Positions 2,620 through 59,713 of a stretch of DNA of 64,000 bases are shown here, in pieces; positions within the stretch are counted from its first letter, which is position 1; every line of letters starts with the position of its first letter. The notes under the pieces are model-generated. The model saw only the letters and a list, made by a program, of their open reading frames with translations, did no database searches and was not told where the DNA came from. The stretch is from the NCBI RefSeq assembly GCF_001677475.2, contig NZ_CP015229.1; one strand, written 5' to 3'. The position numbers and the translations under genes are program-made. Source of the DNA: Escherichia coli. GTDB taxonomy: Bacteria > Pseudomonadota > Gammaproteobacteria > Enterobacterales > Enterobacteriaceae.

Positions 2620-3444
2620 TTACTCCAGCGGCATTACCAGCGGATCGGGATACTGGTATTCAAACCCCAGTTCATTACAAATCCGACTGCCATCAATAAT
2701 CTTACCTTTGCCGCTGTCCAGACTATTTCTGAACTGCGGAGGTTCCAGCCCCAGTAAACGGGCCATCTGCGGATAGAAAACATTACGCGCAGGGTGAGCT
2801 GGCGCACATATATTATAGATGTGTCCGCCTTTAGGTGCCTGTAACAACAGAGTGATAGCGCCAATAACATCTTCTAAATGGACTAAATTAACACCATGTT
2901 CACCATCAGGCGCGGTTTTTCCGGCAAAGAAGCGTCCGGGATGACGTCCCGGTCCGACCAGCCCCGCAAGACGCAGAATATCGACCGAAGTACCGGGTAA
3001 ATTGTGCAGCCAGTCTTCGAGTTCTTCTAATACTCGTCCACTGTTGGTCACCGGATTACGCGGGGTGGTTTCTTTCACCGTGCCTTGCGCGTCGCCATAG
3101 ACAGATGTTGAGCTGGTAAAAATAATTCGGGGAATACGATGGGCCAGCGCGCTATCCACTAACTCTTGTACCGCTTGTAAATAGAACTCATCGCCGGGGC
3201 CGCTACGACGTGCCGGAAGCGTAATGACCAGCGCGTCGGCATCCATCAGGGCATCCAGATCGTCAGAATCGCAAACTAACTCAGGCTCCATGCGAAGCAG
3301 ATAGCTATCAATGCCACTCATTCGGGCCGCTTCGACACCATCTTGTGTGGTTTTACTCCCGGTGACTTGCCAGCCTCGCGCTGAAAGTGACATCGCCAGC
3401 GGCATGCCTAACCACCCTAACCCGACAATTGCGACCTTTTTCAT
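2620..3444 (-). CDS. yeeZ: NAD-dependent epimerase/dehydratase family protein YeeZ
   Basis: Rossmann N-terminus MKKVAIVGLGWLG; 274 aa; synteny. Confidence 0.85.
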   Translation of the reverse strand: MKKVAIVGLGWLGMPLAMSLSARGWQVTGSKTTQDGVEAARMSGIDSYLLRMEPELVCDSDDLDALMDADALVITLPARRSGPGDEFYLQAVQELVDSALAHRIPRIIFTSSTSVYGDAQGTVKETTPRNPVTNSGRVLEELEDWLHNLPGTSVDILRLAGLVGPGRHPGRFFAGKTAPDGEHGVNLVHLEDVIGAITLLLQAPKGGHIYNICAPAHPARNVFYPQMARLLGLEPPQFRNSLDSGKGKIIDGSRICNELGFEYQYPDPLVMPLE

Positions 3445-3526
3445 CCGTTATCTCCTGATACACCTTAGATCTATAAGGCTACGCTAGCGTATCAAAACTG
3501 ACAATTCATTCTATGAATGAATCTGT

Positions 3527-3781
3527 TCAATAATGATAACGACATGCTGCAATGAGCAGTGAATCGTCGGTAACCGCGTATACCAGACGGTGCTCCTCTG
3601 TAATGCGTCGGGACCAGAAACCTGACAAATTATGTTTCAGGGGTTCTGGCTTCCCCTTACCTTCAAATGGCGTTCTGCGGGTATCTTTGATAAGTTCATT
3701 GATCTTTTTAACAATTCGCTTATCTGTTTCCTGCCAGTACAGATAATCATCCCATGATTCCTCAGACCAGATTAGTTTCAC
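3527..3781 (-). CDS. yoeB: YoeB toxin (RelE/ParE superfamily mRNA interferase)
   Basis: 84-aa [25 protein letters not shown]... ending ...CRYHY; overlaps yefM stop by 4 nt. Confidence 0.9.
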
Positions 3782-4029
3782 TCAATAATGTCCTTTTCCG
3801 TTCCTTTGCCAGATTTCAGGCTATCGATTGAGTCCATCAATCTCCGGGCATTAGCGGGGGAACGCAGTAGATAAGCCGTCTCCTCCAGGGAGTTGTATTC
3901 TTCGAGTGACATCAGAACACAAGCCTCTCCATTCTGACGAGTAATAAGGATCGGGGCATGATCTTCAACGGCTTTCATCATTGTTGCCGACAAATTCTGA
4001 CGCGCTTCGCTGTAGCTAATTGTACGCAT
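3778..4029 (-). CDS. yefM: YefM antitoxin (Phd/YefM family); start taken at internal Met [13 protein letters not shown]
   Basis: ORF translation matches remembered 83-aa YefM; ORF-track N-terminal extension is probably not translated. Confidence 0.85.
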
Positions 4030-4044
4030 GTTAATCTCCTCTTT

Positions 4045-4062
4045 TGTACATTTCATTGTACA
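4045..4062. promoter_or_regulatory. Putative YefM-YoeB operator: two TGTACA core motifs 12 bp apart just upstream of yefM
   Basis: ttgTGTACAtttcatTGTACAat read in sequence; the TGTACA core of the yefM operator is established knowledge. Confidence 0.5.
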
Positions 4063-4312
4063 ATGATGGGCGTTAATTAACTATTTATTAATTAGTTTGT
4101 AGATCAAGATATTGTCAGTGAGTCGAAAAATACAGGCTTCGCTATTTTTGGTGCCGTCAGCTTAGAGGTCAGTCCTCTTAGCACCCTCCTTGCCCCGCTC
4201 ATTCATTAAACAAATCCATCGCCATAAAATATATAAAAAAGCCCTTGCTTTCTAACGTGAAAGTGGTTTAGGTTAAAAGACATCAGTTGAATAAACATTC
4301 ACAGAGACTTTT

Positions 4313-4363
4313 ATGACACGCGTTCAATTTAAACACCACCATCATCACCATCATCCTGACTAG
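4313..4363 (+). CDS. hisL: his operon leader peptide HisL (MTRVQFKHHHHHHHPD, 7 consecutive His codons)
   Basis: 16-codon ORF with His7 run read directly; too short for ORF track. Confidence 0.95.
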   Translation: MTRVQFKHHHHHHHPD

Positions 4364-4423
4364 TCTTTCAGGCGATGTGTGCTGGAAGACATTCAGATCT
4401 TCCAGTGGTGCATGAACGCATGA

Positions 4424-4460
4424 GAAAGCCCCCGGAAGATCATCTTCCGGGGGCTTTTTT
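4424..4460 (+). terminator. his attenuator terminator (gcccccggaag...cttccgggggc followed by T6)
   Basis: Perfect GC-rich hairpin plus T-run between hisL and hisG. Confidence 0.9.
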
Positions 4461-4508
4461 ATTGCGCGATTGATAACGGTTCAGACAGGTTTAAAGAGGA
4501 ATAACAAA

Positions 4509-5408
4509 ATGACAGACAACACTCGTTTACGCATAGCTATGCAGAAATCCGGCCGTTTAAGTGATGACTCACGCGAATTGCTGGCGCGCTGTGGCATTAA
4601 AATCAATCTTCACACCCAGCGCCTGATCGCGATGGCAGAAAACATGCCGATTGATATTCTGCGTGTGCGTGACGACGACATTCCCGGTCTGGTAATGGAT
4701 GGCGTAGTAGACCTTGGGATTATCGGCGAAAACGTGCTGGAAGAAGAGCTGCTTAACCGCCGCGCCCAGGGTGAAGATCCGCGCTACTTTACCCTGCGTC
4801 GACTGGATTTCGGCGGCTGCCGCCTTTCGCTGGCAACGCCGGTTGATGAAGCCTGGGACGGCCCGCTCTCCTTAAACGGTAAACGTATTGCCACCTCTTA
4901 TCCTCACCTGCTCAAGCGTTATCTCGACCAGAAAGGCATCTCTTTTAAATCCTGCTTGCTGAACGGTTCTGTTGAAGTCGCCCCGCGCGCCGGACTGGCG
5001 GATGCAATTTGCGATCTGGTTTCCACCGGTGCCACGCTGGAAGCTAACGGCCTGCGCGAAGTCGAAGTTATCTACCGCTCGAAAGCCTGCCTGATCCAGC
5101 GCGATGGCGAAATGGAAGAATCCAAACAGCAGCTGATCGACAAACTGCTGACCCGTATTCAGGGTGTGATCCAAGCGCGCGAATCAAAATACATCATGAT
5201 GCACGCACCGACCGAACGTCTGGATGAAGTCATCGCCCTGCTGCCAGGTGCCGAACGCCCAACTATTCTACCGCTGGCGGGTGATCAACAGCGCGTAGCG
5301 ATGCACATGGTCAGTAGCGAAACCCTGTTCTGGGAAACGATGGAAAAACTGAAAGCGCTGGGTGCCAGTTCAATTCTGGTCCTGCCGATTGAGAAGATGA
5401 TGGAGTGA
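4509..5408 (+). CDS. hisG: ATP phosphoribosyltransferase HisG (start at [12 protein letters not shown])
   Basis: ORF translation matches HisG; operon context. Confidence 0.95.
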
Positions 5409-5413: not shown

Positions 5414-7796
<2,383 letters not shown>

Positions 7797-7797
<1 letters not shown>

Positions 7798-13950: not shown

Positions 13951-14131
13951 TCAGAATTAACTTAACTGTGAATCATGATGTTTTTAGCATCCTGATAAGA
14001 GTTAAAAGTTTTAACGCTACGTTGTAAGATGGTCAACGCAACGAAAAACAATTCAGATTTTCTTTATAAGAATAGCTGATATTTATTAAGTTAATATTAA
14101 GCAGTGAAATTTAGTCTATAAGATATTTGGC

Positions 14132-14163
14132 AAAAAAAAGCCCGGTGCAATATACGCCGGGCC
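14132..14163 (-). terminator. Rho-independent terminator downstream of gnd (gcccggtg...cgccgggc with A8 on plus strand = T8 on minus)
   Basis: Hairpin plus homopolymer run read directly. Confidence 0.6.
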
Positions 14164-14189
14164 TCAATTTTATTGTTGATTAAATCAGA

Positions 14190-15596
14190 TTAATCCAGCC
14201 ATTCAGTATGGAACACACCTTCTTTATCAATGCGCTTATAAGTATGCGCACCGAAATAGTCACGCTGTGCCTGGATCAGGTTTGCAGGCAGAACTGCGGC
14301 GCGGTAGCTGTCATAATAGGCAACCGCAGCCGCGAAGGTCGGAACCGGGATACCGTTCTGTACTGCATAAGCAACGACATCACGCAGCGCCTGCTGGTAG
14401 TCATCGGCAATTTGCTTAAAGTACGGAGCCAGCAGCAGGTTAGCGATCTGTGGATTTTCGGCATATGCATCGGTGATTTTCTGCAGGAACTGCGCACGGA
14501 TGATGCAGCCAGCACGGAAAATCTTCGCGATTTCGCCGTAGTTCAGATCCCAGTTGTATTCTTCAGACGCAGCACGCAGCTGAGAGAAGCCCTGAGCGTA
14601 AGAAACGATTTTGCCCAGATACAGCGCACGGCGAACTTTTTCGATGAACTCAGCCTTGTCGCCTGCTGACTGAGCTTGCGGACCAGAGAGAACTTTAGAT
14701 GCGGCAACGCGCTGATCTTTCAGAGAAGAGATATAACGTGCAAACACAGACTCGGTAATCAGCGACAGCGGTTCTCCGAGATCCAGCGCGCTCTGGCTGG
14801 TCCATTTACCGGTACCTTTGTTAGCCGCTTCATCCAGGATCACATCAACCAAGTAGTTACCGTCTTCATCTTTTTTAGTGAAGATGTCTTTGGTGATGTC
14901 GATCAGGTAGCTGCTCAGTTCACCGTTATTCCACTCGGTAAAGGTCTGTGCCAGTTCTTCGTTGGTGAGGTTCAGGCCACCTTTAAGCAGAGAATAGGCT
15001 TCAGCAATCAGTTGCATATCACCGTATTCAATACCGTTGTGAACCATCTTCACATAGTGACCTGCACCATCGGCACCAATATAGGTAACGCATGGCTCCC
15101 CGTCTTCAGCTACTGCGGCGATTTTGGTCAGGATCGGTGCAACCAGTTCATAGGCTTCTTTCTGCCCACCAGGCATAATGGAAGGACCTTTCAGCGCACC
15201 TTCTTCACCGCCGGAAACACCGGTACCAATGAAGTTAAAACCTTCGGCAGAAAGCTCACGATTACGACGAATGGTGTCCTGGAAGAAGGTATTACCACCA
15301 TCAATAATGATGTCACCTTTATCGAGGTATGGCTTGAGGGAATCAATAGCAGCATCCGTGCCTGCACCTGCTTTAACCATTAACAGGATGCGACGAGGCG
15401 TTTCCAGAGATTCAACGAACTCTTTCACCGTATAGTAAGGAACCAGTTTTTTGCCTGGATTTTCGGCAATCACTTCTTCCGTCTTTTCACGGGAACGGTT
15501 GAAAATAGAGACGGTATAACCACGGCTTTCGATGTTAAGCGCAAGATTGCGCCCCATCACTGCCATACCGACTACGCCAATCTGTTGCTTTGACAT
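14190..15596 (-). CDS. gnd: 6-phosphogluconate dehydrogenase (decarboxylating) Gnd
   Basis: [21 protein letters not shown]... 468 aa; synteny. Confidence 0.95.
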
Positions 15597-15787
15597 TGTT
15601 TACTCCTGTCAGGGGGTTACCGCGGGATTGCGCGGCTTGAATATGAAACAGATGTTAACTCAAGTTACATGAATGTGTGTAGTGCTGAATTTCATTAATG
15701 CAACGAATACCGTTCATCTTCCTTTATACAGACATCCACTTGTAACCAAACCTACGCGCACATGTAAGCGAAGATAAATCTATAACA

Positions 15788-17212
15788 TCAAGAAATTAAA
15801 GATATAATACTCCCAAGCACATTCGTAACATATTGCTTAGCCTGATTTTCATCACTGCCTTCAGCGTAACAACGGAGTTCAGGGGCATTTCCGGAAGGAC
15901 GGAGATGTATAATATCACCATTAGTTAAAATAAATCTTGCACCATCAGTTTCATCAATAGTGGAACAGGATAATGATTCATACCCTAATTTATTAAAGAA
16001 ATTATTAGGTGATGAAATGGCATTTTTTATAATTTGCTGACTTGACTCTGAAGGAAAGTTTTTCACTCTATCTGACCAAGTAAATCGCTGTGGAAGATTA
16101 TTAACCAGTTGAGAGATAGTACTATTGCGAGAAGCTATTAAGAGCATTAACGCTGGTAATACTGCATCTCGAGTAGGTAACGCATTTAATTCTTTGCCAT
16201 TAATTTGTAAATCGGAGGCAAGCAGAAAACCGCCATTAGCTTCAAAACCAGCGACTGAATCAAATTGTTTAGCAAGTTCTGAAAACGCTGCAATCACATA
16301 AGGAGAGCCAATTTTAGTCCGTTGTGTATTTGCAAATTTATTAGATTGTTCAATTGCTGTATTACAACTCACTGGAATAGCCAACGCCTTGATATTAAGT
16401 TCAATAGCCGTAAGTAATCCCAGAATATCGCCTCGTAGCCATTCACCATTTTCATCGGCAACTAAAGGGCGATCACCATCACCATCTGTTGAGAAAATTG
16501 CATCGAGATTGTATTTTTTAGACCACTCTCTTGCAAGTAGACGATCTTCTTCGCTAACTGCTTCCGTATCAATAGGAACGAACTCATCACTTCTACCGAG
16601 GGAGATGACCTCAGCACCCAATTGATTAAAAAGTGGAGCATATAAATCTCGTCCTGCACTAGAATGTTCATAGATCCCAATTCTCTTCCCCTTTAAAATA
16701 TCGGAATTAAAAAGAGAAACATAACGTTCTAGGTATGAATCCGCACCTTGAGTACTTGTTTCAAGATGAGGTAATACATCTACAGGAGAAAAAACATATT
16801 CACTATTTACTATTGCTAACTCATCCTCTTTTGTGATTTCACCATCTGGACGGTAAAATTTCAAACCATTACGGTCAAAAGGTATGTGACTACCGGTAAC
16901 CATTATGCAGGGGATGTTTTTCTGCATGGAATAATGAGCTAATGCAGGGGTCGGAATTACACCATGATATTCAACAGCGAACCCATGTTGTTTGATAGCG
17001 AACGCGCATGCCTGAGCAATTTCATAACTACTCGGGCGATTGTCAATGGCTAAAGCAACTTTATTAAAATTGTATTTGTCATCAATAACAGAAAGAAACG
17101 CATGACTGAAGGCTGCACAAACATCATGGGTAAAATCGATGACTAAACCACGAGCACCACTAGTGCCGAAAGCAATATTGCTATCGGTAATGATTTTGTT
17201 AGCATTTAACAT
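15788..17212 (-). CDS. O-antigen cluster phosphohexomutase (phosphomannomutase-like, divergent; TGSHIP and DGDGDR motifs)
   Basis: alpha-D-phosphohexomutase-like motifs in ORF translation; position downstream of manC; sequence clearly different from cps CpsG in this window. Confidence 0.65.
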   Translation of the reverse strand: MLNANKIITDSNIAFGTSGARGLVIDFTHDVCAAFSHAFLSVIDDKYNFNKVALAIDNRPSSYEIAQACAFAIKQHGFAVEYHGVIPTPALAHYSMQKNIPCIMVTGSHIPFDRNGLKFYRPDGEITKEDELAIVNSEYVFSPVDVLPHLETSTQGADSYLERYVSLFNSDILKGKRIGIYEHSSAGRDLYAPLFNQLGAEVISLGRSDEFVPIDTEAVSEEDRLLAREWSKKYNLDAIFSTDGDGDRPLVADENGEWLRGDILGLLTAIELNIKALAIPVSCNTAIEQSNKFANTQRTKIGSPYVIAAFSELAKQFDSVAGFEANGGFLLASDLQINGKELNALPTRDAVLPALMLLIASRNSTISQLVNNLPQRFTWSDRVKNFPSESSQQIIKNAISSPNNFFNKLGYESLSCSTIDETDGARFILTNGDIIHLRPSGNAPELRCYAEGSDENQAKQYVTNVLGSIISLIS

Positions 17213-17217
17213 GATGA

Positions 17218-17964
17218 TTACTTCTTAATAAATTGAGGAAGTTTGGATAGATTTTTATACGCTAAAGCTATTGGCCAGATAATACCATTCTGTTTCATAG
17301 CGCGAATATCTTCCATTGATTTATTGATCATGGAAGATGCTGAGCGATTGCTAATTCCACCAACACGCATTTTCACTAATACTTTTGGTAAGTAAGCTAT
17401 TGAAATACGCTGTTTTAAAATATAACGTAATAATGAGTCATAATCAGCAGATATTCGGTAATCTAATGAAAAACAACCAAACTCACTATAACAATCGCGT
17501 TTCATATAAAATGATGGGTGTGGCGGCATCCAACCTAGTTTCATCTTCAAACGGCTAAATGAGCCACTCTTCCATAATCTAATACGTTTAGTCGTATCAT
17601 TTTGGGCAACATACTCCAAATCACCATAAACAGCATCACACCCTGAACTTTCAAATGTTTTTACTATATCTGCAATAGCATCGTCATAAGCAAGTAAGTC
17701 ATCAGAGTGCAAAAATCCAATTATATCACCAGAAGCTGCTTGAATACCTTTATTCAGTGCATCATAAATACCATTGTCGGGTTCGCAAATGATTGTTGAA
17801 ACTCTTGTACATTTACTCTTGATTAGCTCTATTGTATTATCTTTCGATGCTCCATCTACAACTATATATTCAATATCTGAATGCGTTTGTTTTTCCAGAG
17901 AGAGTAATGTATCAAGAAGCGTTTTTTCACTATTATAAGTTGCTGTGATAATTGAAATCCGCAT
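17218..17964 (-). CDS. Glycosyltransferase family 2 (WcaE-like)
   Basis: N-terminal ISIITATYNSEKTL...VVDGASKDNT motif typical of GT2; O-antigen cluster context. Confidence 0.75.
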   Translation of the reverse strand: MRISIITATYNSEKTLLDTLLSLEKQTHSDIEYIVVDGASKDNTIELIKSKCTRVSTIICEPDNGIYDALNKGIQAASGDIIGFLHSDDLLAYDDAIADIVKTFESSGCDAVYGDLEYVAQNDTTKRIRLWKSGSFSRLKMKLGWMPPHPSFYMKRDCYSEFGCFSLDYRISADYDSLLRYILKQRISIAYLPKVLVKMRVGGISNRSASSMINKSMEDIRAMKQNGIIWPIALAYKNLSKLPQFIKK

Positions 17965-19370
17965 TAGTATCCAACTCCAGAAGAAGAAACTCTTATAACA
18001 TCATCCTCTTCCAAGTAGACTCCTGATCTAACCTCAATTATTTCAAGTGGGATCTTGCCAGGATTTTCAATGGCATGTGGAACACCAACAGGTATATATG
18101 TTGATTCATTTTCTGAAACAAGATAAGTTTTCTCCTCAAGATGAACTTTAGCTGTCCCCGAAACAACAATCCAATGTTCAGTACGATGGTAATGGATCTG
18201 CTTAGCGGTAATGTGACCCGGTAATACAATCACATGTTTAACCTGAAAGCGTTGCCCTTCAGCTATAGTGTCATGACTGCCCCAAGGACGAAAAATTTCC
18301 CGATGTTGTAAATATTCTGTTCGATTATTCTTTTTAAGCTGAGCTACGATGTTTTTAACTTGCTGAACTTTATCTTTATGAGCAACTAATACTGCATCTT
18401 TCGTTTCAACGACAACCAAATCCTTTACGCCCACGGCACCAATAAGTCTATGCTGCGAATAAAGATAACTATCTGTAGCATCCTCAACCAAAACATCACC
18501 ACGAATGGCATTGCCGCTTTGGTCTTTTGAACTTATTTCCCACAGCGCAGACCATGACCCAACATCACTCCATTGCGCATCCAATGGTACGACTACAGCT
18601 TCTGCTGTTTTTTCCATAACGGCATAGTCGATTGACTCTTCAGGGCAGCAAGAAAAAGAAGAATTATCCAAGCGGATAAAATCTAAATCTTGAGTCGAGG
18701 AAGCTAAGGATTGCTGACAACTCTCTAGAATATCTGGACGGAATTTTTTTAGTTCATCGATGAATACAGATGCTCTGAACATAAACATTCCACTATTCCA
18801 AAGATAACCGCCATCTGACAAATACCGCTGAGCTAATTCTAGCTCTGGCTTTTCAACAAAAGCTGCAACTTTATAACCTTGCCCACTAAGTGGATCACCT
18901 GACTTAATATAGCCATACCCTGTCTCTGGAGCTGTTGGAACAATGCCAAATGTGACCAACTTACCTTGCTGCGCAAACTCCTTCGCGGCCAAAACTGCTG
19001 TAATGAAACTATTCTCATCCTGAATTTCATGGTCAGCCGCAAGAACTAAAAGTATAGGATCCTCTCCACTTGCCGTTGCCTGAAGCGCTGCAAGGGCTAC
19101 AGCTGGTGCCGTATTGCGCCCAACAGGCTCAAGCAAAATCCCACTATGCTTTAAACCAACTTTACGTAATTGTTCAGCAACGATGAAACGATGTGATTCA
19201 TTACAAATGATCAAAGCAGGATTGTGTTCAACCTTTTCTAGCCGTCGCATAGTCTCTTGCAACATAGTTAAGCGGCTATTTAAAGACAGAAATTGTTTCG
19301 GATAAAGTGTACGTGAAAGAGGCCATAATCTGGTACCAGATCCACCGGCCATGACAACGGGAAGTAGCAT
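17964..19370 (-). CDS. manC: Mannose-1-phosphate guanylyltransferase / mannose-6-phosphate isomerase (ManC), O-antigen copy
   Basis: ORF translation closely parallels cps CpsB in this window ([19 protein letters not shown]... C-terminal cupin); AT-rich codon usage. Confidence 0.9.
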   Translation of the reverse strand: MLLPVVMAGGSGTRLWPLSRTLYPKQFLSLNSRLTMLQETMRRLEKVEHNPALIICNESHRFIVAEQLRKVGLKHSGILLEPVGRNTAPAVALAALQATASGEDPILLVLAADHEIQDENSFITAVLAAKEFAQQGKLVTFGIVPTAPETGYGYIKSGDPLSGQGYKVAAFVEKPELELAQRYLSDGGYLWNSGMFMFRASVFIDELKKFRPDILESCQQSLASSTQDLDFIRLDNSSFSCCPEESIDYAVMEKTAEAVVVPLDAQWSDVGSWSALWEISSKDQSGNAIRGDVLVEDATDSYLYSQHRLIGAVGVKDLVVVETKDAVLVAHKDKVQQVKNIVAQLKKNNRTEYLQHREIFRPWGSHDTIAEGQRFQVKHVIVLPGHITAKQIHYHRTEHWIVVSGTAKVHLEEKTYLVSENESTYIPVGVPHAIENPGKIPLEIIEVRSGVYLEEDDVIRVSSSGVGY

Positions 19371-19375
19371 ATCTA

Positions 19376-19837
19376 TTACCTTGATATAAAATAATTTTTG
19401 GTATATTGATGAACTGTAGTGCTATTAAGCAACGTTACTACATCAAACCACTTGTAGGAATTATGCTGAATCGTTGGTAGGCGAAGTTGCTGCGGATTAA
19501 TTTGAATTTCATATCCATGCACTACGTAGTGTGTAGAAAAATCTAGTTCAGAAAAATTGTCATTGTAAAAGTGTTCATACACACCAAGAAATATGGCCTC
19601 ACCAAGACTAGTTTGAACGCCTAACTCTTCATATGTGATCCTTTTAAAAGCATCCTCGAATGACTCGTCCTTAAAAATTCGCCCTCCAGGCACAAACCAA
19701 TAATTTTTTGCGGGGCGATTCAGGCGCTGCCCAAGCAGCGCCTCTCCTTTATCATTTCTAATTATGAGGTCAATCGAGATTAGAGGAGTATGCTTGACTA
19801 TTGTTTTAAATAACTCATATTCTAATCTCTTTTTCAT
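19376..19837 (-). CDS. gmm: GDP-mannose mannosyl hydrolase (NUDIX), O-antigen copy
   Basis: NUDIX-type protein parallel to cps Gmm/WcaH in this window (YWFVPGGR motif). Confidence 0.85.
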   Translation of the reverse strand: MKKRLEYELFKTIVKHTPLISIDLIIRNDKGEALLGQRLNRPAKNYWFVPGGRIFKDESFEDAFKRITYEELGVQTSLGEAIFLGVYEHFYNDNFSELDFSTHYVVHGYEIQINPQQLRLPTIQHNSYKWFDVVTLLNSTTVHQYTKNYFISR

Positions 19838-19839
19838 AA

Positions 19840-20805
19840 CTATCCCCGAAAAGAATCAATATTCTCAAGAAACCATTGATATGTTAATGATAGACCTTCA
19901 TGTAAATTATAGCGATGTAGCCAGCCCAAGTTTTTGAGTCGGGTAACGTCCATAAGCTTTCGCGGGGTGCCATCTGGTTTGGTCGCGTCAAAAACAATTT
20001 TTCCTTGATAACCCACTACAGAAGCCATTGTTTCAGCCATTTCACGTATAGAACAATCCACCCCCGTACCAACATTAATATGAGATAACATTGGTTGTGT
20101 ATTTTGTTGATAGATTGTGTCCTCTAACTCCATCACATGAACCGAGGCAGCAGCCATATCATCAACATATAAAAACTCACGCATCGGTGTTCCCGTGCCC
20201 CAGACAATAACTTCTTGTGCACCACTTTCTTTTGCCTCATGGAATCTACGCATAAGCGCCGGAATAACATGGGAGTTTTCAGGATGGAAGTTATCATTCG
20301 AACCATAAAGATTAGTCGGCATTACACTTCTATAATCGCGACCATATTGACGATTATAAGACTCACATAATTTTATGCCCGCAATCTTAGCAATTGCGTA
20401 TGGCTCATTAGTTGGCTCAAGTATGCCCGTCAAAAGTGCAGACTCTTTCATCGGCTGCTCTGCAAATTTTGGATAAATGCAGCTAGAGCCTAAAAAAAGT
20501 AATTTTTGAATTCCAACCTTGTGAGCTGAATGTATAATATTACTCTCAATCATGAGATTCTGATAAATGAATTCTGCTGGAAATGTATTATTGGCATAAA
20601 TACCACCTACTTTTGCCGCAGCAAGATAAACCTGATCAACCCTCTCTCTCTCAAAAAATGCCTCAACATCCTTCTGCACGGTCAGATCGAGTTCTTTGTG
20701 TGTTTTAACCACTAACTCGATATCATCACGCAGCGATAATTGTCGGCAAATAGCAGAGCCAACCATGCCCTGGTGCCCAGCAACATATACTCTTTTCTTT
20801 ATCAT
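19840..20805 (-). CDS. fcl: GDP-L-fucose synthase (GDP-4-keto-6-deoxymannose 3,5-epimerase/4-reductase), O-antigen copy
   Basis: 321 aa, colinear with cps Fcl in this window ([12 protein letters not shown]...). Confidence 0.9.
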
Positions 20806-20808
20806 GTA

Positions 20809-21942
20809 TTAACGCTCCAGAGAAACCGAAACATCATAACCATGGCTTTTAAGAAGTGCATGTTGTTTCGCTTTTAACAAATCGCTAGCAACCATTTCTG
20901 CACACATCTCTTCAACTGTAATCTCTGGTTCCCAGCCTAATAGATTTTTTGCTTTTGCAGGGTCACCTAAGAGTGTTTCAACTTCAGCAGGACGGAAATA
21001 ACGAGGATCAACCCGAACTATAACGTCTCCAACATTTACACCAATAGCACAATCGGAAACTTTATTAACTACTGTGGCTATCTCATCTACACCCTCACCA
21101 GTGAATTCAAGTTCAAGTCCGACTTCTTTAGCAGCCATACGGACAAATTCACGCACAGATATCTGTTTACCTGTGGCGATGACAAAATCCTCTGGATGAT
21201 CTTGCTGAAGCATCATCCATTGCATGCGAACATAATCTTTAGCGTGTCCCCAGTCACGCAACGAATCCAGATTACCCAAATATAAGCATTGTTCGATCCC
21301 CTGAGAAATATTAGCTATTGCACGAGTAATTTTACGAGTAACAAAAGTTTCTCCACGGCGTGGCGATTCATGGTTAAAAAGAATACCATTACAAGCATAT
21401 ATACCATAAGATTCACGGTAGTTAACTGTTATCCAGTAAGCATACATCTTAGCTACAGCATAAGGCGAACGCGGGTAGAATGGAGTTGTTTCACGCTGAG
21501 GAATCTCTTGCACTAAACCAAAAAGTTCTGAAGTAGATGCTTGATAGAAACGTGTTTTTTTCTCCAGCCCACAGATTCGTATTGCTTCTAATAAACGTAA
21601 TGTACCTATTGCATCTACATCTGCTGTATATTCTGGTGACTCGAATGATACTGCGACATGGGATTGTGCACCAAGGTTATAAATTTCATCCGGTTGAATT
21701 TCTTGGATTAAACGGATCAGATTCGATGTATCTGTTAAATCCCCATAGTGTAAAATAAAATTAGGCTCATCAACGAATCGTGATTGATATATATGATCAA
21801 TTCTATCAGTGTTAAATGACGATGCTCGGCGTTTTATACCATGTACTTCATAACCTTTTTCAATAAGAAATTCAGCAAGATATGAACCATCTTGTCCAGT
21901 TACGCCTGTGATAAATGCAACTTTTTTATTCATTTTAATCAT
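20809..21942 (-). CDS. gmd: GDP-mannose 4,6-dehydratase, O-antigen copy (start may be at MNKK, 21930)
   Basis: Colinear with cps Gmd in this window ([37 protein letters not shown]). Confidence 0.9.
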
Positions 21943-21951
21943 GTTATGTTC

Positions 21952-22983
21952 CTAAATATTCAACTCATTATAAACTTTAATCGTTTCATTAACACATTTT
22001 GACCATGAAAATTTTTGCGCCTGCAGTAAACCTCTTTCGATCATAACATTTCTTTTTAAATTAACTAATTCTAAAGCTTCTTTTAACGTAAACTCATTAA
22101 TATCATCAATATAAATAGGCGCATTCCCCCCTACTTCCGGCAACGAGGATGTGTTTGCACAAATAACTGGACATCCGGCCTGCATAGCTTCTAGGACAGG
22201 TATTCCAAACCCCTCATAACTGGAAGGGTAAACAAGTGCATATGCAGTATTATACTGTATATTTAAATCTTCATTACTCAAAAATGTAAAATGTTCATAT
22301 CTATTTTTTAAATATTTTTCAAGGAGTTCTCTTTCATATTTTTTAAGCGAGCCTCCGCCTACAATTGTAAGCTTTAAGCCATGTAATTTCCCTACAGCTT
22401 TGACTGCAAGAACGAAATTTTTATAACCTTCTCTGGCACCGACAAACAAAACTGAATTATTTACTCTCATATCAGATATGTTAGAAATATGTTTATATGA
22501 TGGGGATACACCATTATAAATCACTCTAATTTTATCTTCACTAATTGGACAGTACTTAAGTAAATCTCTAGCAGTGTTGTTTGAAATACAAATTACGATA
22601 TCACTATTCTTGATAGCATGATATTTTTGAAGAGAATGAATAAATTTTGACATTCCTCCCCTGTATTTTTCATAGGTAAAATCATGAACAGTTGTAACAT
22701 TTTTCACATTCAAATTAGGATTTTTATGAACTCGATAATAACTTGAGTGTAAAACCCTAGTTTTAATATCACTTACATTTCTATATCTTTCTAAAATTCT
22801 TGGCTCACGATATTGCAACTTTAAGTCACTTGTATCAAACTCAAATTCTTTATTTTTATACAATAGAATTTCAGCTTGGTAATTTGATTTCACCATTCCT
22901 TGGATCAACTCATTAAAGTATACACTTATTCCACCAAATGATTGGAGATTATAAATAATCCCATCGATAGTTACCATTATCAT
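21952..22983 (-). CDS. Glycosyltransferase family 1 (GT4-like)
   Basis: C-terminal EGFGIPVLEAMQAGCPVI motif typical of GT-B retaining glycosyltransferases. Confidence 0.75.
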   Translation of the reverse strand: MIMVTIDGIIYNLQSFGGISVYFNELIQGMVKSNYQAEILLYKNKEFEFDTSDLKLQYREPRILERYRNVSDIKTRVLHSSYYRVHKNPNLNVKNVTTVHDFTYEKYRGGMSKFIHSLQKYHAIKNSDIVICISNNTARDLLKYCPISEDKIRVIYNGVSPSYKHISNISDMRVNNSVLFVGAREGYKNFVLAVKAVGKLHGLKLTIVGGGSLKKYERELLEKYLKNRYEHFTFLSNEDLNIQYNTAYALVYPSSYEGFGIPVLEAMQAGCPVICANTSSLPEVGGNAPIYIDDINEFTLKEALELVNLKRNVMIERGLLQAQKFSWSKCVNETIKVYNELNI

Positions 22984-24236
22984 CGCCCTCGCAAGGTAAT
23001 ACGTTCGATTAGAACGAACAATATCAAAAAGAAGATCAGTAACAATACATATGCAGGCCCAGAAAAATAAGTTCCAAATGAAGGTGAAATGAGAATTATA
23101 GAAAGCAAAAAATAGGATGCAGAGTTCGTAATTACTTTTGCATTAAACATTTTAAGCTTAGCAAAAATATAGCCATAAAAGATATTCATAGGTGAAAGAA
23201 AAGTTAAAATGACCAGTCCAACATATCCATAATCAACAAAATTATCCATCCCTTTTGAAAAAGCAGGTGTATGCCCCGACTCTGCAGCTCCTGGATAATA
23301 GATTTCATTTACATGCAGAAATCCATATACAAAAGGTTTATCAGGAAACAAACCTCTCGGTATATAAGACCAAAACTGGCTGAAATAGACTGTGCCATTG
23401 AAAAATTTAACCACACCTTTATCAATATCTTGCAGCAAATAAATACTGTTTTGATACTGGTCAAAATAAGACAATACTACATCGACATTCATATTTCCAA
23501 TAGCTAAAAATAAATTATAGAGAATGGCACACGCTGCCAGAGGTGTAACTAAAATCAGGCCAAATTTTAGAAATCTAGATTTATTAAGACTTAACACTGC
23601 AAGATAAAAAATCGCAAATGAAAGAATAAAGGTTTTCGATCCAAGAAAAAAAACCAAGGTACAATAGAATATCGCGCATAAAAATAATTTTATTTCCGAG
23701 CGTAAAGCCAACGCTCTAGAAAAATAAGATACTGAAAGCATACTTAAAGAAAAGGCATACAAAAAACCATTACCTTCTCGATAGTTTTGATAACCATCCC
23801 TGGGATTCGTCAACCATCCAGAAATACCTATTTCTGACTTTGAAGAAAGAAGAACAAATAATGTAACAAACAGAACCAATGTAATATTTGATATTCTTTT
23901 TAATTTTGTATGCGAAATTAAGCAAGTTAAATAGCTCTCTCTATTTTTGAATATTATATTAAAAATAAAATAAAATAAAATTATAGATAAAACACCCACA
24001 AAAGAGTATATGTTATATATGAATAAAGCCTCATTATAATATTGATTTAACGCAAAGTCTGAACCATAGAAAAGAGGGGCCAGAATATTTTCCAATAGAA
24101 AAACCGGGAATAAAATAATGGCGCAAATGGTAAAGGGATTGATAATTGTAAGTCTTAGCGTTTTCGTCGCTAATAAAGAAAAAGAAAAATATAGTACTAC
24201 AGCGAGTGTAACATTTAAACAATATATTATTACCAC
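22980..24236 (-). CDS. wzy: O-antigen polymerase Wzy (candidate)
   Basis: 418-aa highly hydrophobic multi-TM protein with no catalytic motifs of other families, very AT-rich, located in O-antigen cluster. Confidence 0.6.
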   Translation of the reverse strand: MVIIYCLNVTLAVVLYFSFSLLATKTLRLTIINPFTICAIILFPVFLLENILAPLFYGSDFALNQYYNEALFIYNIYSFVGVLSIILFYFIFNIIFKNRESYLTCLISHTKLKRISNITLVLFVTLFVLLSSKSEIGISGWLTNPRDGYQNYREGNGFLYAFSLSMLSVSYFSRALALRSEIKLFLCAIFYCTLVFFLGSKTFILSFAIFYLAVLSLNKSRFLKFGLILVTPLAACAILYNLFLAIGNMNVDVVLSYFDQYQNSIYLLQDIDKGVVKFFNGTVYFSQFWSYIPRGLFPDKPFVYGFLHVNEIYYPGAAESGHTPAFSKGMDNFVDYGYVGLVILTFLSPMNIFYGYIFAKLKMFNAKVITNSASYFLLSIILISPSFGTYFSGPAYVLLLIFFLILFVLIERITLRGR

Positions 24237-24246
24237 ATCCTCTCCC

Positions 24247-25056
24247 CTATCTTAAACCGAATAATTTGCGCTTAATTGATTTTGTTTTTTGATATAATGT
24301 TTGAGGAACAATCATTTTAAATAAAACTTGCAATGTATTATAGACAGCAAATTTTATTTTGTATGATAAGGGCATATGAATATTATTTTTAGCTAGAATG
24401 TAAGCAATTTCTTTCTTGACTAATTTTTTATTAGACTCATTTGAACTTACACCCGAAGCATCCATTATGGATACAGGAAAATTCACATAATGCAACGTAG
24501 ATGGATCTATTGTTCTTATCATAAAATCACTATCAGCAGCAATTTTTAGTGTTGTATCAAAGCGATTAGCATTATCTTTAAAAAAGCTAGAATGCTGGAA
24601 AGTACCCTGATGAGGAGGAAGTGAAGGCCGACCACATTCCCACTTTTTCTGTATTTTTCCGTAAACTCCAACTATATTATCTTTATCACTAAAATATACA
24701 TCACCATATATAGTTGTTGCACTCATATTTTCGTGAATGGCATTTGCTATTTTTGAAAGAGTATTATTTTCATAGAATGTATCGCCAGCTCCCATAAAAA
24801 TAACCCAATCGCCATTTATGTGAGGAAGAGCTTTATTCCAAGCGTCGTATATTCCTTGATCAGATTCGCATAAAAAATAATCTATAATATCAATATATCT
24901 ATAAATATATTCTAGTGTTGATTTGTTAGAGTTGCCGTCTATAACAATCCATTGAATATTACAATAATTTTGATTTTTAATAGATTCTGCAGTCTTGCAG
25001 AAATCTTCCTCACAATTATACGTCGATGTTATTATAGTAATCTGTAAGCCATTCAT
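24247..25056 (-). CDS. Glycosyltransferase family 2
   Basis: ITIITSTYNCEEDF...VIDGNSNKST N-terminal GT2 signature. Confidence 0.75.
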   Translation of the reverse strand: MNGLQITIITSTYNCEEDFCKTAESIKNQNYCNIQWIVIDGNSNKSTLEYIYRYIDIIDYFLCESDQGIYDAWNKALPHINGDWVIFMGAGDTFYENNTLSKIANAIHENMSATTIYGDVYFSDKDNIVGVYGKIQKKWECGRPSLPPHQGTFQHSSFFKDNANRFDTTLKIAADSDFMIRTIDPSTLHYVNFPVSIMDASGVSSNESNKKLVKKEIAYILAKNNIHMPLSYKIKFAVYNTLQVLFKMIVPQTLYQKTKSIKRKLFGLR

Positions 25057-25062
25057 CTTAAC

Positions 25063-27014: not shown

Positions 27015-27031
27015 TTTTTAATTATCTTTTG

Positions 27032-27574: not shown

Positions 27575-27578
27575 TTTA

Positions 27579-28457: not shown

Positions 28458-28514
28458 TTCATCATTCCTTTTAATTCATCTTGCTCCACCATCACGAACA
28501 AGATGCAAAAACTA

Positions 28515-30499: not shown

Positions 30500-30573
30500 T
30501 TAATTATTCCATATTACTTCAGAGCATGCTGTGAAATAAGCGGCTCTTAGTTTGATTAATAGAGGTATTAATG

Positions 30574-30612
30574 CACGCTACCGCCCCTGGCTTTACAGCT
30601 ACCAGAGCACTG
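30574..30612 (-). promoter_or_regulatory. JUMPstart element containing ops (GGCGGTAGCGTG) upstream of the O-antigen operon
   Basis: Minus-strand read: cagtgctctggtagctgtaaagccaggggcggtagcgtg, matching the remembered 39-bp JUMPstart consensus. Confidence 0.9.
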
Positions 30613-30870
30613 CATGCATGCCTACGATGTGACGAGCGTTACCCACTCGCGCTAAACCCGAAAAATTCAAACACTAATTGTCTTACCAATCCGCTCTGGA
30701 AACAAGGAAAATCCTGGAAAACTTTGACTAAAATCCTATTGCTAACTCGTTGTTATCCTGATTGTTTATATAAAACAACGGCAGGAATATTCGCAACAAA
30801 TTACTTTCGCCACGAATCTTCACTGCCGTTATAATTTTCTTATCAACCGTTACATTCGGTCAGATTTTCA

Positions 30871-55066: not shown

Positions 55067-55507
55067 ATTTAGCTTAATTTTTAAAACCCTCTCAACATAC
55101 AGTCGTTGATGAGAAAGGGTTATTGCGGAAATTAACTTCCGAATATAAGGTGACATTATGGTAATTGAATATTGGCTCTCCAATAATGCAGGAGGAAGTG
55201 TTACAGCTAACGGAATAGCAGGCAAGGTAACAATTCGGCAATTGGCTATTTTTAAGAATTATATTAAGTGTCATTCAATATGGTTTTTAGGAGTTTCTTT
55301 AGGTTGACAATATTTAATATAGTGTCTCCACATGCGATATTTCTTAAATAATGTTTTATTATTACCACTTTTAATTCAGGGATAATGTGAGGTTATTACC
55401 CTCAAATAATATGAGATAAATAGTGCTGCAACATTGCATTTTTGCCCCGATTTATCCATGATCGAATTGTGACATTTGTCATACAACGAATAGGTTTTGT
55501 ACTTACT

Positions 55508-57091
55508 ATGGAATGGATTGCCGATCCGTCTATCTGGGCCGGGTTAATCACGCTGATTGTGATCGAACTGGTCCTCGGCATTGATAACCTGGTCTTTATT
55601 GCCATCCTCGCCGAAAAACTACCGCCGAAGCAGCGCGACCGCGCACGGGTTACCGGGCTGTTGCTGGCGATGTTAATGCGCCTGTTACTGCTGGCGTCAA
55701 TCTCCTGGCTGGTCACCCTGACACAACCGCTATTCAGCTTCCGCTCGTTTACCTTTAGCGCCCGCGATTTAATCATGCTGTTTGGTGGTTTCTTCCTGCT
55801 GTTCAAAGCCACGATGGAGCTGAACGAACGGCTGGAAGGGAAAGACAGCAATAACCCCACGCAACGCAAAGGTGCGAAGTTCTGGGGGGTGGTGACACAA
55901 ATTGTGGTACTGGACGCCATCTTCTCACTCGACTCAGTGATTACCGCCGTCGGGATGGTCGACCATTTACTGGTCATGATGGCCGCCGTTGTTATCGCTA
56001 TTAGCCTGATGTTGATGGCAAGCAAGCCGTTAACCCAGTTCGTTAACAGTCACCCGACCATCGTTATTCTCTGCTTAAGCTTCCTGTTGATGATTGGCTT
56101 TAGCCTGGTGGCGGAAGGTTTCGGCTTCGTCATTCCGAAAGGCTACCTGTACGCTGCCATTGGTTTCTCGGTGATGATCGAGGCGCTCAATCAGTTGGCT
56201 ATCTTTAACCGGCGACGTTTTCTTTCCGCTAACCAGACGCTGCGCCAGCGGACTACCGAAGCGGTAATGCGCCTGCTTAGCGGGCAAAAAGAAGATGCGG
56301 AACTGGACGCCGAAACCGCGTCCATGCTGGTGGATCATGGTAACCAGCAGATCTTTAATCCGCAGGAACGGCGGATGATTGAGCGGGTACTTAATCTTAA
56401 CCAGCGTACCGTCAGCAGCATTATGACGTCGCGCCACGATATTGAGCATATCGATCTCAACGCGCCGGAAGAAGAAATCCGCCAGTTGCTGGAGCGAAAT
56501 CAGCATACGCGGCTGGTGGTTACCGACGGTGATGACGCAGAAGATTTGCTCGGTGTTGTTCACGTTATCGACCTGCTACAACAGTCTCTGCGCGGCGAAC
56601 CGCTCAACCTGCGGGTGTTGATTCGCCAGCCGCTGGTGTTCCCGGAAACCTTGCCGTTGTTACCTGCCCTGGAGCAGTTCCGTAATGCCCGCACGCACTT
56701 TGCTTTTGTGGTGGATGAGTTTGGTTCAGTGGAAGGGATTGTGACATTAAGTGACGTCACTGAAACCATTGCCGGTAACTTACCGAACGAAGTGGAAGAG
56801 ATCGACGCCCGCCATGATATTCAGAAGAATGCGGACGGTTCCTGGACGGCGAATGGTCATATGCCGCTGGAGGATCTGGTGCAATATGTGCCGCTACCGC
56901 TGGATGAAAAACGTGAATATCACACCATTGCCGGGCTGTTGATGGAATATTTACAGCGTATTCCAAAACCTGGCGAAGAAGTTCAGGTGGGGGATTATTT
57001 GCTTAAAACGTTGCAGGTGGAAAGCCATCGCGTGCAGAAGGTGCAGATTATTCCACTGCGTAAGGATAGCGAGATGGAGTACGAGGTGTGA
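55508..57091 (+). CDS. yegH: Inner-membrane TerC-family/CBS/CorC-domain protein YegH (start at [12 protein letters not shown])
   Basis: TerC-like TM region followed by CBS pair and CorC_HlyC domain in ORF translation; synteny. Confidence 0.9.
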
Positions 57092-57165: not shown

Positions 57166-57527
57166 ATGAGAAAAAAGCTGGCTTTTCTTGATACCAGTCT
57201 TGACGATTTACGCGCATTTCCAGAATCGTCTCGACAGGAAATTGGCTATCAACTCGCCAGGAAATTGGCTATCAACTCGACAGGATCCAACAAGGGTTAA
57301 ACCCATACGACTGGAAACCTTTTACAACTATCGGCCCGGGTGTGCGAGAGATTCGTACTCGCGATGCTGATGGGATCTATCGCGTCATGTATGTCGCAAA
57401 ATTTGAAGAAGCGGTTTACGTATTGCATTGTTTTCAAAAGAAAACACAGACTACCAGTCAATCGGATATTGATTTAGCCAAACGACGCTATAAAGAACTT
57501 GTTCAGGAGCGGAAAAATGAAAATTGA
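57166..57527 (+). pseudogene. HigB-like (RelE/ParE superfamily, Gp49-like) toxin gene disrupted by a frameshift
   Basis: N-terminal 30 codons in frame 1 (MRKKLAFLDTSLDDLRAFPESSRQEIGYQL) then premature stop; C-terminal part in another frame (…REIRTRDADGIYRVMYVAKFEEAVYVLHCFQKKTQ…). Removing one copy of a 23-bp tandem repeat restores a 112-aa ORF. Confidence 0.7.
57233..57278 (+). repeat. 23-bp direct tandem duplication (gacaggaaattggctatcaactc / gccaggaaattggctatcaactc) causing the frameshift in the toxin gene
   Basis: Two adjacent copies with one mismatch read directly. Confidence 0.85.
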
Positions 57528-57807
57528 AACCTTTGATAGTGTGTGGGATGCGGTGAGTGTCACCCCTGAACAAGCGGAAAATATGCGGATCCGTGCCGAG
57601 CTTGTAACGATCATTAATAACTGGATTGAACAACAAGGGTTTAGCCAGACTCAGGCAGCGTCTGCTTTAGGGGTCACTCAACCTCGCATATCTGAACTTG
57701 CCAGAGGTAAGATCCAGATCTTTAGTATCGATAAATTGATCACCATGATGGCTCATGCAGGATTGCATATTCAACGTATTGAAGTTCAATATCCACATGC
57801 TGCTTAG
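57517..57807 (+). CDS. HigA-like antitoxin (XRE-family helix-turn-helix), start ATG overlaps toxin stop
   Basis: MKIETFDSVWDAV...QTQAASALGVTQPRISELARGKIQIFSIDKLITMMAHAGLHIQ; HTH_XRE-like motif; GGAG RBS upstream. Confidence 0.7.
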   Translation: MKIETFDSVWDAVSVTPEQAENMRIRAELVTIINNWIEQQGFSQTQAASALGVTQPRISELARGKIQIFSIDKLITMMAHAGLHIQRIEVQYPHAA

Positions 57808-57818
57808 TACTATAAATA

Positions 57819-57859: not shown

Positions 57860-59713
57860 TTACATCTTCTCCAGCAACTTCTTCACATCTTTGCCATTGC
57901 GGGAATCTTTATTCCGCTCGGCCCAGTCATTCAGGCGACGTTTCGCTTCGTCCTGTAGATGTTTGCGCAGTAACTGATCCACTTGCAGACTGTAATTGAG
58001 TTGCTGCCAGTTGCCATAAACCCGCAGCGGTACTGGCGTTTCTTTGAGGAAATCAATCAGTTTGCTTTCCCCGTTCCAGCCACCCACGACCCGAATATCA
58101 AACTGGGTGTCGCAGGTTTGATCTGCCAGATTCAACATACCTTCCCCTGTAAGCGCCAGCACAGGCGATTGACCTTGCATGTCGTTTAACGTCACGACGC
58201 CATCCTTCAACGTCAAATCGGTGGTAAAGCGATCAAGCCGCGTCACGTTATCGAAGTTTTCAGCGGCCTTCACATCACCACCATTACGCTCTACCGCTTG
58301 CTGAATCATCTGCTGGAAGTTCATCCCTTCCATGCGCGTGTCAGTCATTTCGACATGTGCCTGTCCTTGCCAGTTGTGGCGGAATGCGTCGGCATCTATG
58401 TCAGCACCGGAGAAATCACCAGCCAGTGACATTTTTCCGGTCAACGAAATCGGATAGTTAAACGCCTTCAGAATGGTACCAATCTCAACGTTTTCCAGCC
58501 GTGGCTGAAAGTTTATCCGCGGATTTGCTGATGTCGCGTCCAGCGTGCCCGGCAGTGAAACCTGTCCACCGTTAAGTTTGCCCTGCAGTTGAGTAATTTC
58601 CAGCAAACCCGACTTGTTGGTCATTTGCGTGGCAACATCTGTAAAATTCATTCCGCGCCAGCGCACGTTACTGGCTTGCAACAAAATATCAGCCGTAAAG
58701 CCTTGCAGTCCCTGATAGGCCGGTTCATCAATACGCGAAGAAATGACCGGGCGCGGCAACGTTGATTGGCTCTGCCCTTGCTGCGCGGCACCGTTTTCAC
58801 CATTCGCTGTTTCATTAAGCGGGATGAGGTTGTCAAGATTCAGTTGCGGGAATTGCAGTCTCAGCTGCCATTCCGGTTTCTCTGTCAGCGTGACCTGTGC
58901 TTGCCCGCTCAGCGTACTTTCATTGGCGGTCAAGCTGATTTGGTTAAATGAAAGGCGTTTATGTGACTCCTGCCACTGGGCCTGGAAACTCCCCTGCCCC
59001 TGAATACCTTGTTTTGGTAAATCGGCACCCTGCAACTGCCAGTTAATTTGTTCAATAGCCGCCGTTAAATCATGCGGATAATCAGAAGCATCTACCGTAC
59101 CGTTAAGGGATATCGTGAGATCGCGCTGATCGCGATTAACCCGCCCGGAGAACTCAAATGAGCCACGATGTTGGGGATCTTGTTCCATTTGCAGGCGGAT
59201 ATTACGGATTGTCACCTGCTCGTCATCTTCATGCTGGAACACCAGAACGCTGTCCGCCACCTTAAGACTGGATATATCAAACGACCATCCGCGATCGTCT
59301 GACAGATCCGGCAAAGTATTGTCGCGCGGTGCAACAGGAGCGTCTTCACTGCGCACCGCTTCAGTCTGCGGCGTCAGTTGGATCACTGCCCCTTTTAGCA
59401 TCACCTGCTTAACGCTCAGTTGATGACTCAGTAGTGGTAAAAGCGCCACGTCCAGACGCATGTTGTCGGCGCGAACCAGTGGCTGGCTTGCGCCCTGGGC
59501 GGTGAGAGACATTCGCCCGGAGAGGATACTAAGCTGCGGCCAGACGTGCCAACGCAGTGGCCCGTCGAGCTGCAATTGATAACCGCTACGTGCAGCAACT
59601 TGCTTGACCATATAGTCGCGGAAATCATTCGGATTCACCAGCAACACTAACGCAGATAACCCGGCCACCAGCACGACCAGGAGTATCATCAGCGTCGTCA
59701 GAAATCGTCTCAT
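57860..59713 (-). CDS. asmA: Outer-membrane assembly protein AsmA
   Basis: 617 aa; N-terminal TM anchor; synteny with dcd/udk. Confidence 0.9.
   Translation of the reverse strand: MRRFLTTLMILLVVLVAGLSALVLLVNPNDFRDYMVKQVAARSGYQLQLDGPLRWHVWPQLSILSGRMSLTAQGASQPLVRADNMRLDVALLPLLSHQLSVKQVMLKGAVIQLTPQTEAVRSEDAPVAPRDNTLPDLSDDRGWSFDISSLKVADSVLVFQHEDDEQVTIRNIRLQMEQDPQHRGSFEFSGRVNRDQRDLTISLNGTVDASDYPHDLTAAIEQINWQLQGADLPKQGIQGQGSFQAQWQESHKRLSFNQISLTANESTLSGQAQVTLTEKPEWQLRLQFPQLNLDNLIPLNETANGENGAAQQGQSQSTLPRPVISSRIDEPAYQGLQGFTADILLQASNVRWRGMNFTDVATQMTNKSGLLEITQLQGKLNGGQVSLPGTLDATSANPRINFQPRLENVEIGTILKAFNYPISLTGKMSLAGDFSGADIDADAFRHNWQGQAHVEMTDTRMEGMNFQQMIQQAVERNGGDVKAAENFDNVTRLDRFTTDLTLKDGVVTLNDMQGQSPVLALTGEGMLNLADQTCDTQFDIRVVGGWNGESKLIDFLKETPVPLRVYGNWQQLNYSLQVDQLLRKHLQDEAKRRLNDWAERNKDSRNGKDVKKLLEKM

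Follow-up and report, generated by a model that had tools for sequence, protein, structure and literature searches.

An intact chromosomal yefM-yoeB toxin-antitoxin operon, including its published operator, in an Escherichia coli genome

The locus described here is, almost certainly, an intact chromosomal yefM-yoeB type II toxin-antitoxin operon of Escherichia coli, which includes the operator that has been characterized in the literature. It is found in a continuous stretch of 64,000 nucleotides of E. coli DNA (contig NZ_CP015229.1), referred to as the window, and all positions given below are those of the window. The yefM-yoeB locus is an ordinary one, which is fully known already and holds nothing surprising. 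Its structure, operator, promoter and catalytic mechanism have all been determined by experiments on identical proteins, and no feature of the sequence speaks against this identification.

Genomic setting

Comparison of the list of open reading frames with the K-12 annotation yielded the gene order yeeY-yeeZ-yoeB-yefM-hisL-hisG, which is the same as that in K-12. The operon is chromosomal and located between yeeZ and hisL, where it is divergent from the his operon (Table 1). An 871-bp query that spans the cassette is 100% identical to the corresponding region of E. coli strain KV7, for which the RefSeq annotation lists yoeB, yefM and hisL. A search of the Rfam families over positions 3300-4700 gave the His leader as the sole match, i.e., no RNA family was found inside the cassette.

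The interval 3527-4062, to which an earlier note on this DNA had assigned the module, is bounded by the stop codon of yoeB and by the outer end of the core hexamer of the operator repeat L. The complete L palindrome reaches position 4066 and the -35 box position 4083, i.e., both extend beyond that interval.

Table 1. Coordinates of the yefM-yoeB operon, its control region, its surroundings and related features of the window
Feature	Position	Strand	Remarks
yoeB, ribosome-dependent mRNA interferase toxin	3527..3781	minus	84 aa, GTG start, TGA stop at 3527-3529
yefM, Phd/YefM-family antitoxin and autorepressor	3778..4029	minus	83 aa, ATG at 4029
GTGA overlap of yefM and yoeB	3778..3781	minus	4 nt; yefM stop TGA (3780..3778) and yoeB start GTG (3781..3779), as in the K-12 annotation
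Shine-Dalgarno sequence GAGGAG	4036..4041	minus	precedes the yefM ATG by 6 nt; the same in all six aligned E. coli alleles
In-frame upstream ATG	4054..4056	minus	published position -7 to -5; opens a 92-aa ORF (3778..4056); not used
S (short) operator repeat, TGTACA core	4045..4050		contains the transcription start G 4049 (minus strand, +1)
L (long) operator repeat, perfect 14-bp palindrome TCATTGTACAATGA	4053..4066		core 4057-4062; covers the -10 box
-10 hexamer TACAAT of promoter pyy	4055..4060	minus	same as published 5'-TAcAAT-3' (PMC7730913)
-35 hexamer TAGTTA	4078..4083	minus	17 bp upstream of -10; same as published 5'-TaGttA-3' with 17-bp linker (PMC7730913)
Regulatory difference from K-12	4032		A in the window, G in K-12; SD-ATG spacer
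Regulatory difference from K-12	4051		A in the window, C in K-12; position -2, directly beside the S core
Regulatory difference from K-12	4069		C in the window, T in K-12; -35/-10 linker; C is the majority base among six aligned alleles
AT-rich hairpin followed by GUCAGUUUUG	3504..3522	minus	arms of 8 bp and loop of 3 nt; follows the yoeB stop at a distance of 5 nt
Presence/absence segment	3522..4174		yoeB, yefM, promoter-operator and ~90 bp upstream; right boundary approximate; from alignment with two cassette-less strains
His leader	4339-4462		Rfam RF00514, 132.6 bits
Flanks of the operon			plaP, yeeY and yeeZ on one side; hisL, His leader and hisG-hisD on the other; arranged as in K-12
HTH_37/XRE antitoxin of the HigBA-like insert	57499..57807		3.6e-21

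The toxin and the antitoxin

The operon encodes a complete YefM/YoeB pair, as the earlier note had claimed, and both proteins are 100% identical to those of K-12. All 83 residues of YefM are the same as residues 4-86 of chain A of PDB entry 2A6Q, and all 84 residues of YoeB are the same as those of chain E of that entry (100% identity). The YoeB sequence is also identical to that of E. coli YoeB in PDB entries 2A6R and 2A6S and to that of the ribosome-bound toxin in entries 4V8X, 6OTR, 6OXA and 6OXI.

These identities are accompanied by matches to curated family models. YoeB is matched over the full length (1-80 of 80) of the Pfam model PF06769 (YoeB_toxin) at 146.3 bits, where the cut-off is 27, and by the NCBIfam equivalog TIGR02116 (Txe/YoeB) at 132.8 bits (cut-off 51.8). 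It is also matched by PF05016, and a match to TIGR02385 (RelE_StbE) is weak and falls under the curated cut-off. For YefM, the match to PF02604 (PhdYeFM_antitox) scored 96.8 bits (cut-off 29.8) and that to the NCBIfam equivalog NF008499 scored 186.6 bits (cut-off 121). In addition, YefM is matched by the Phd-family model TIGR01552.

Because YoeB is 100% identical to the wild-type protein, the residues involved in catalysis and substrate contact are present, and E46, R59, E63, R65, H83 and Y84 can all be read off the translation; i.e., there is no substitution of a catalytic residue. In the toxin, E46 serves as the general base and H83 as the general acid, R65 and Y84 stabilize the transition state, and R59 and E63 contact the substrate (PMC3814384). 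In YefM, the DNA-binding arginines R10 and R31 are found in the N-terminal basic patch of the 83-residue translation; according to a passage of PMC4803016 that cites Bailey & Hayes 2009, both are essential for DNA binding.

The yefM gene is located immediately upstream of yoeB, both on the minus strand, and the 4-nt overlap of the two genes that the earlier note described is found at 3778-3781 as GTGA, in agreement with the annotation of K-12. This overlap of stop and start codons probably couples translation of yoeB to that of yefM. From the sequence of the toxin, the source strain would harbor an apparently functional YoeB.

Candidate features that overlap these coding sequences were rejected. 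Two antisense open reading frames on the plus strand (3552..3746 and 3632..3757) are mechanical calls that overlap a gene with full protein-level support. Terminator-like sites within the coding sequences on the same strand (3607-3626 and 3880-3892) are attributed to chance, with two found and 0.9 expected. The only report of the repeat search at the cassette was an inverted repeat (77%) inside yoeB, which was also judged to be a chance occurrence.

The start codon of yefM

The mechanical list of open reading frames, as well as early annotation, starts YefM at the ATG at 4056, which would yield a protein of 92 residues. This ATG is in frame with yefM, the list shows no stop codon between the two starts, and an equivalent in-frame upstream ATG exists in K-12. 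Yet we consider a 92-residue YefM highly improbable, because primer extension placed the +1 position at a G that corresponds to 4049, i.e., downstream of the ATG at 4056, and because the product of an overexpressed yefM that included the upstream codon still began at +21 (PMC1802561). The upstream ATG itself is located within the L palindrome, overlapping the -10 box, and it is not preceded by a Shine-Dalgarno sequence, whereas GAGGAG precedes the ATG at 4029 by 6 nt. The Pfam and NCBIfam models also begin at residue 1 of the 83-residue protein.

The longer frame is thus over-extended, since its ATG (at -7) is found upstream of the mapped transcription start; it is the "-7" start that was rejected by Kedzierska et al. 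(PMC1802561), and the suspicion in the earlier note of an over-extended N-terminus is borne out. The start at 4029 is the one annotated in both K-12 and strain KV7, and the 6-bp gap between the ribosome-binding site and this ATG is the published one (PMC1802561). The correct annotation of yefM is therefore that of an 83-residue protein that starts at 4029 and not that of the 92-residue frame.

Promoter and operator

Upstream of yefM, the minus strand reads ...ATAGTTAATTAACGCCCATCATTGTACAATGAAATGTACAAAAGAGGAGATTAACATG. The published -35 and -10 elements, the start-site G and the ribosome-binding site are all intact in the window, and from the G at 4049 the ATG of yefM is found at +21, as published. 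The two TGTACA motifs pointed out upstream of yefM by the earlier note (4045-4050 and 4057-4062) are the cores of the published repeats S and L. The palindrome TCATTGTACAATGA is identical to the L repeat for which protection by YefM against DNase I was reported (Kedzierska, Lian & Hayes, PMC1802561), and the distance from L to S, center to center, is 12 bp, as published (PMC1802561). Hence, in the comparison of the operator palindromes with the published site, which had been suggested as a check, the L 14-mer, the S core and the spacing are all identical, and the operator is not disrupted. With L over the -10 box and S over the +1 position, the arrangement is that described for the promoter pyy (PMC7730913).

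General-purpose searches did not detect these elements. The sigma-70 consensus scan did not find the yefM promoter because TAGTTA matches TTGACA at only three of six positions, and the promoter was instead placed from the literature. The L palindrome was not reported in the repeat search because its 7-nt arms fall under the length threshold.

A short hexamer such as TGTACA may also occur by chance, and in the 64-kb window single copies are indeed found at chance level, without enrichment (9, compared to 12.3 ± 3.3 expected). That the two hexamers upstream of yefM are chance occurrences without regulatory meaning is nevertheless vanishingly improbable. The 64 kb contain exactly one TGTACA-N6-TGTACA pair, where only 0.10 would be expected even if up to one mismatch is allowed. 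This single pair is, base for base, the K-12 L/S operator defined by DNase I footprinting, over the -10 and +1 positions (PMC1802561, PMC7730913), and it is unchanged in six E. coli alleles. The coincidence of the sole pair with the footprinted operator implies that it is no chance match, and the chance reading is already refuted by the footprinting and mutational results published for an operator of identical sequence.

Sequence variation at the locus

Alignment to K-12 yefM-yoeB, which had also been proposed as a check, revealed seven synonymous coding changes, along with three regulatory positions at which a single base is changed. At the DNA level, the coding sequences differ from those of MG1655 by seven substitutions, all of which must be silent because both proteins are identical to those of K-12. 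The changes at 4032, 4051 and 4069 are all found outside the palindromes and the promoter hexamers, and several further differences from K-12 are located in the upstream intergenic region.

The alignment was extended to six alleles, i.e., those of the window, K-12, CFT073, U13A, CE2050 and O104:H4. The -35 box, L, S and the Shine-Dalgarno sequence, together with a 37-bp upstream block, are invariant in all six, and variation accumulates farther upstream. The A at -2 (4051) is found only in the window among the six aligned alleles, and it is shared with KV7 through the 871-bp identity described above. Among the 4216 genomes that harbor the cassette, 46 are at least 99% identical to the window over its length. 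The lineage-specific C-to-A change at 4051 could alter the cooperative occupancy of the S site or the usage of the start site. In combination with the A at 4032, a different autoregulatory set-point or a different YefM:YoeB ratio might result for this minority allele. We consider such effects quite unlikely. Spacers between the paired hexamers vary widely among species (PMC1802561), and a large effect of an A at -2 would for this reason not be expected.

Loss of function is known at this locus in other strains, which raises the question of whether the cassette of the window might be a decayed or inactivated remnant with a dead toxin, a truncated antitoxin or a broken operator. The known cases are an R65L substitution in the YoeB of U13A, an IS2 insertion in the isolate L6_E562 and the lack of the cassette in ~22% of the genomes. 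In the window, however, YefM and YoeB are 100% identical to the crystallized wild-type proteins, the coding changes are all synonymous, and the operator, the promoter and the Shine-Dalgarno sequence are intact. The amino-acid identity to K-12 makes the remnant reading very unlikely, to the point that we give it hardly any weight, and the locus is regarded as an intact operon in what follows.

E. coli U13A is a uropathogenic (UPEC) urine isolate, in which YoeB carries T19A in addition to R65L, where R65 is the arginine that stabilizes the transition state; judging from these substitutions, this may be a natural allele with an attenuated toxin. Its YefM also differs by accession (WP_001259253.1 instead of WP_001259255.1). 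In the enterotoxigenic (ETEC) isolate L6_E562, the IS2 element is found inside yoeB with yefM intact beside hisL, i.e., an example of inactivation of the toxin.

Proposed regulation and toxin action

The scheme outlined in this section combines two kinds of information. For the window it was established that the proteins, operator, promoter, ribosome-binding site and genomic context are those of the experimentally characterized K-12 system, and the order of binding, corepression, ribosome-dependent cleavage and dependence on Lon are transferred from experiments with K-12. As both proteins and the operator are identical to those of K-12, we infer that YoeB would be toxic, that YefM would neutralize it, and that the operon would display autorepression and protease-dependent activation.

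Transcription is predicted to proceed from the weak sigma-70 promoter pyy, starting at the G at 4049 inside the S repeat. A YefM dimer would bind first to L, over the -10 box, and then to S, over the start site. YoeB, bound at the C-terminus of YefM in a YefM2-YoeB complex, would act as a corepressor, and as a result of this corepression L and S would be occupied cooperatively and RNA polymerase excluded. This proposal follows the roles assigned in the literature, where YefM is the primary repressor and YoeB an enhancer of repression, L is bound before S, and both are bound more avidly by the complex (PMC1802561, PMC3920265). Binding of YefM also hides the catalytic fold of YoeB, which accounts for neutralization of the toxin (PMC3920265).

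Upon depletion of YefM, i.e., by Lon proteolysis, free YoeB would enter the ribosomal A site. Christensen et al. are said to have found, in 2004, that YefM is degraded by Lon and that this degradation leads to activation of YoeB. The toxin would then cleave the A-site mRNA by general acid-base catalysis and translation would stop, consistent with the observation that free YoeB binds in the A site of the 70S ribosome and cuts the mRNA in the A-site codon, after its second nucleotide (PMC3814384).

Comparison with known systems

The closest relative is yefM-yoeB of E. coli K-12 itself (b2017/b4539; PDB 2A6Q), with which the window shares the proteins, the 4-nt overlap, the L 14-mer, the S core and the 12-bp spacing, as well as the -35, -10 and +1 elements, the Shine-Dalgarno sequence and the position between yeeZ and hisL. 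The DNA differs only by changes that are silent or found outside the core elements.

Axe-Txe of the Enterococcus faecium plasmid pRUM is composed of a homologous Phd/YefM-type antitoxin and a YoeB/Txe-type toxin, and its operator likewise holds paired repeats with a TGTACA core, 12 bp apart (PMC7730913). In contrast to the operon of the window, Axe-Txe is plasmid-borne, and its L and S repeats are located between the -35 and -10 elements rather than over the -10 and +1 positions. Furthermore, it has a stronger -35 element (TTGCTT), less complete repression and an extra internal promoter (PMC7730913, PMC3920265). With TAGTTA as the -35 element, L over the -10 box and a chromosomal context, the window displays the pyy arrangement and not that of pat.

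YoeB shares with the toxin of RelBE the microbial RNase fold of the RelE type and the action at the ribosomal A site. However, RelE is without the classical Glu/His acid-base pair that YoeB retains (PMC3814384), and the antitoxin of RelBE is of the RelB type, whereas YefM, the partner of YoeB, is of the Phd type (PMC3920265). YefM is a member of the Phd family, also represented by Phd-Doc, and YefM-YoeB can be described as a "hybrid" of the RelBE and Phd-Doc parent families.

Distribution and role of the cassette

The cassette (3527-4066) was found in 4216 of 5426 complete E. coli genomes (78%), always at 97-100% identity and always on the chromosome. Its flanks are present in 5416-5423 of these genomes, such that ~22% of the genomes harbor the flanks without the cassette. 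Two of the cassette-less genomes, strain 142 (from cattle) and VCSW5, were aligned with the window. In both, ~210 bp are found in place of window positions 3522 to ~4174 (~650 bp) with sharp junctions, and the yeeZ-hisL spacer is shortened from 869 bp to 425 bp. The ~210-bp replacement holds what we take to be REP elements, e.g., GTAGACCTGATAAGGCATTCACGCCGCATCCGGC, recognized from their resemblance to the REP consensus. The cassette is a presence/absence marker among E. coli lineages.

The left junction of the cassette coincides with the last base of the AT-rich hairpin at 3504-3522, for which an RNA fold of -14 kcal/mol (z = -2.15) was calculated. The hairpin was not called in the terminator scan. 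Speculatively, it might act as a weak terminator that separates yoeB from yeeZ.

The physiological role of chromosomal yefM-yoeB is the subject of a continuing debate in the literature. A working module need not be a stress-response regulator of benefit to the host; it could be mainly a selfish, dispensable addiction cassette, inserted as an accessory element between yeeZ and hisL. The presence/absence polymorphism (4216 of 5426), the REP-like replacement with sharp junctions in the sampled genomes and the occasional inactivation of the cassette, as in U13A and L6_E562, would be consistent with such a role. On the other hand, the cassette is maintained at one fixed locus, at 97-100% identity and with near-invariant proteins, in 78% of the genomes. 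Moreover, according to a review, YefM-YoeB contributes to bladder colonization by CFT073 (PMC4963858), and a passage of PMC7256200 refers to protection during thermal stress. On balance, we regard the selfish role as possible, albeit somewhat unlikely. This alternative bears on biological role alone; whichever applies, the molecular mechanism proposed above for the intact operon would be unchanged.

A second, HigBA-like locus

The earlier note also counted two type II toxin-antitoxin loci in the window, of which the second was a HigBA-like insert. The locus is indeed present, at 57140-57830 between yegH (55442..57091) and asmA (57860..59713), but its toxin gene is frameshifted by a 23-bp tandem duplication. 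The encoded toxin is of the Gp49/RelE-ParE type, and PF05973 (5e-21) matches only its C-terminal part. The duplication (57230-57285, 2.4 copies) splits the reading frame of the toxin, and removal of one copy by eye yielded a continuous Gp49-like frame. Because the toxin gene is frameshifted, the locus as sequenced is composed of an antitoxin gene and a toxin pseudogene and does not hold an intact pair.

The HigBA-like insert was found in 910 of 5426 E. coli genomes and is absent from KV7. The best full-length matches cover 745 bp, compared to 768 bp of the query, i.e., 23 bp less, and RefSeq lists an intact "RelE/ParE family toxin" and an HTH protein at these sites. As the best matches are 23 bp shorter and have an intact toxin gene, the duplication is found in none of the full-coverage matches among those listed.

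Other observations in the window

The O-antigen gene cluster at 14000-31800 differs from that of KV7, although the yefM-yoeB regions of the two are 100% identical; from this difference, which is seen in the maps of open reading frames, it follows that the window and KV7 are identical only locally. A different O-antigen cluster beside an identical yefM-yoeB region fits with recombination at the his-gnd-galF region.

A REP/BIME-like repeat with a 96-bp unit (1.9 copies, 35902-36089) is found in the region of the colanic-acid genes, in the gap between the open reading frames 34561-35841 and 36117-37595. Finally, hisC (6715-7797) contains a perfect array of the tetranucleotide GCTG with 7.5 copies (7299-7328). 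The HisC reading frame of the window comprises 360 residues, compared to 356 in strain KV7, which suggests an in-frame expansion of the GCTG repeat by 12 bp.
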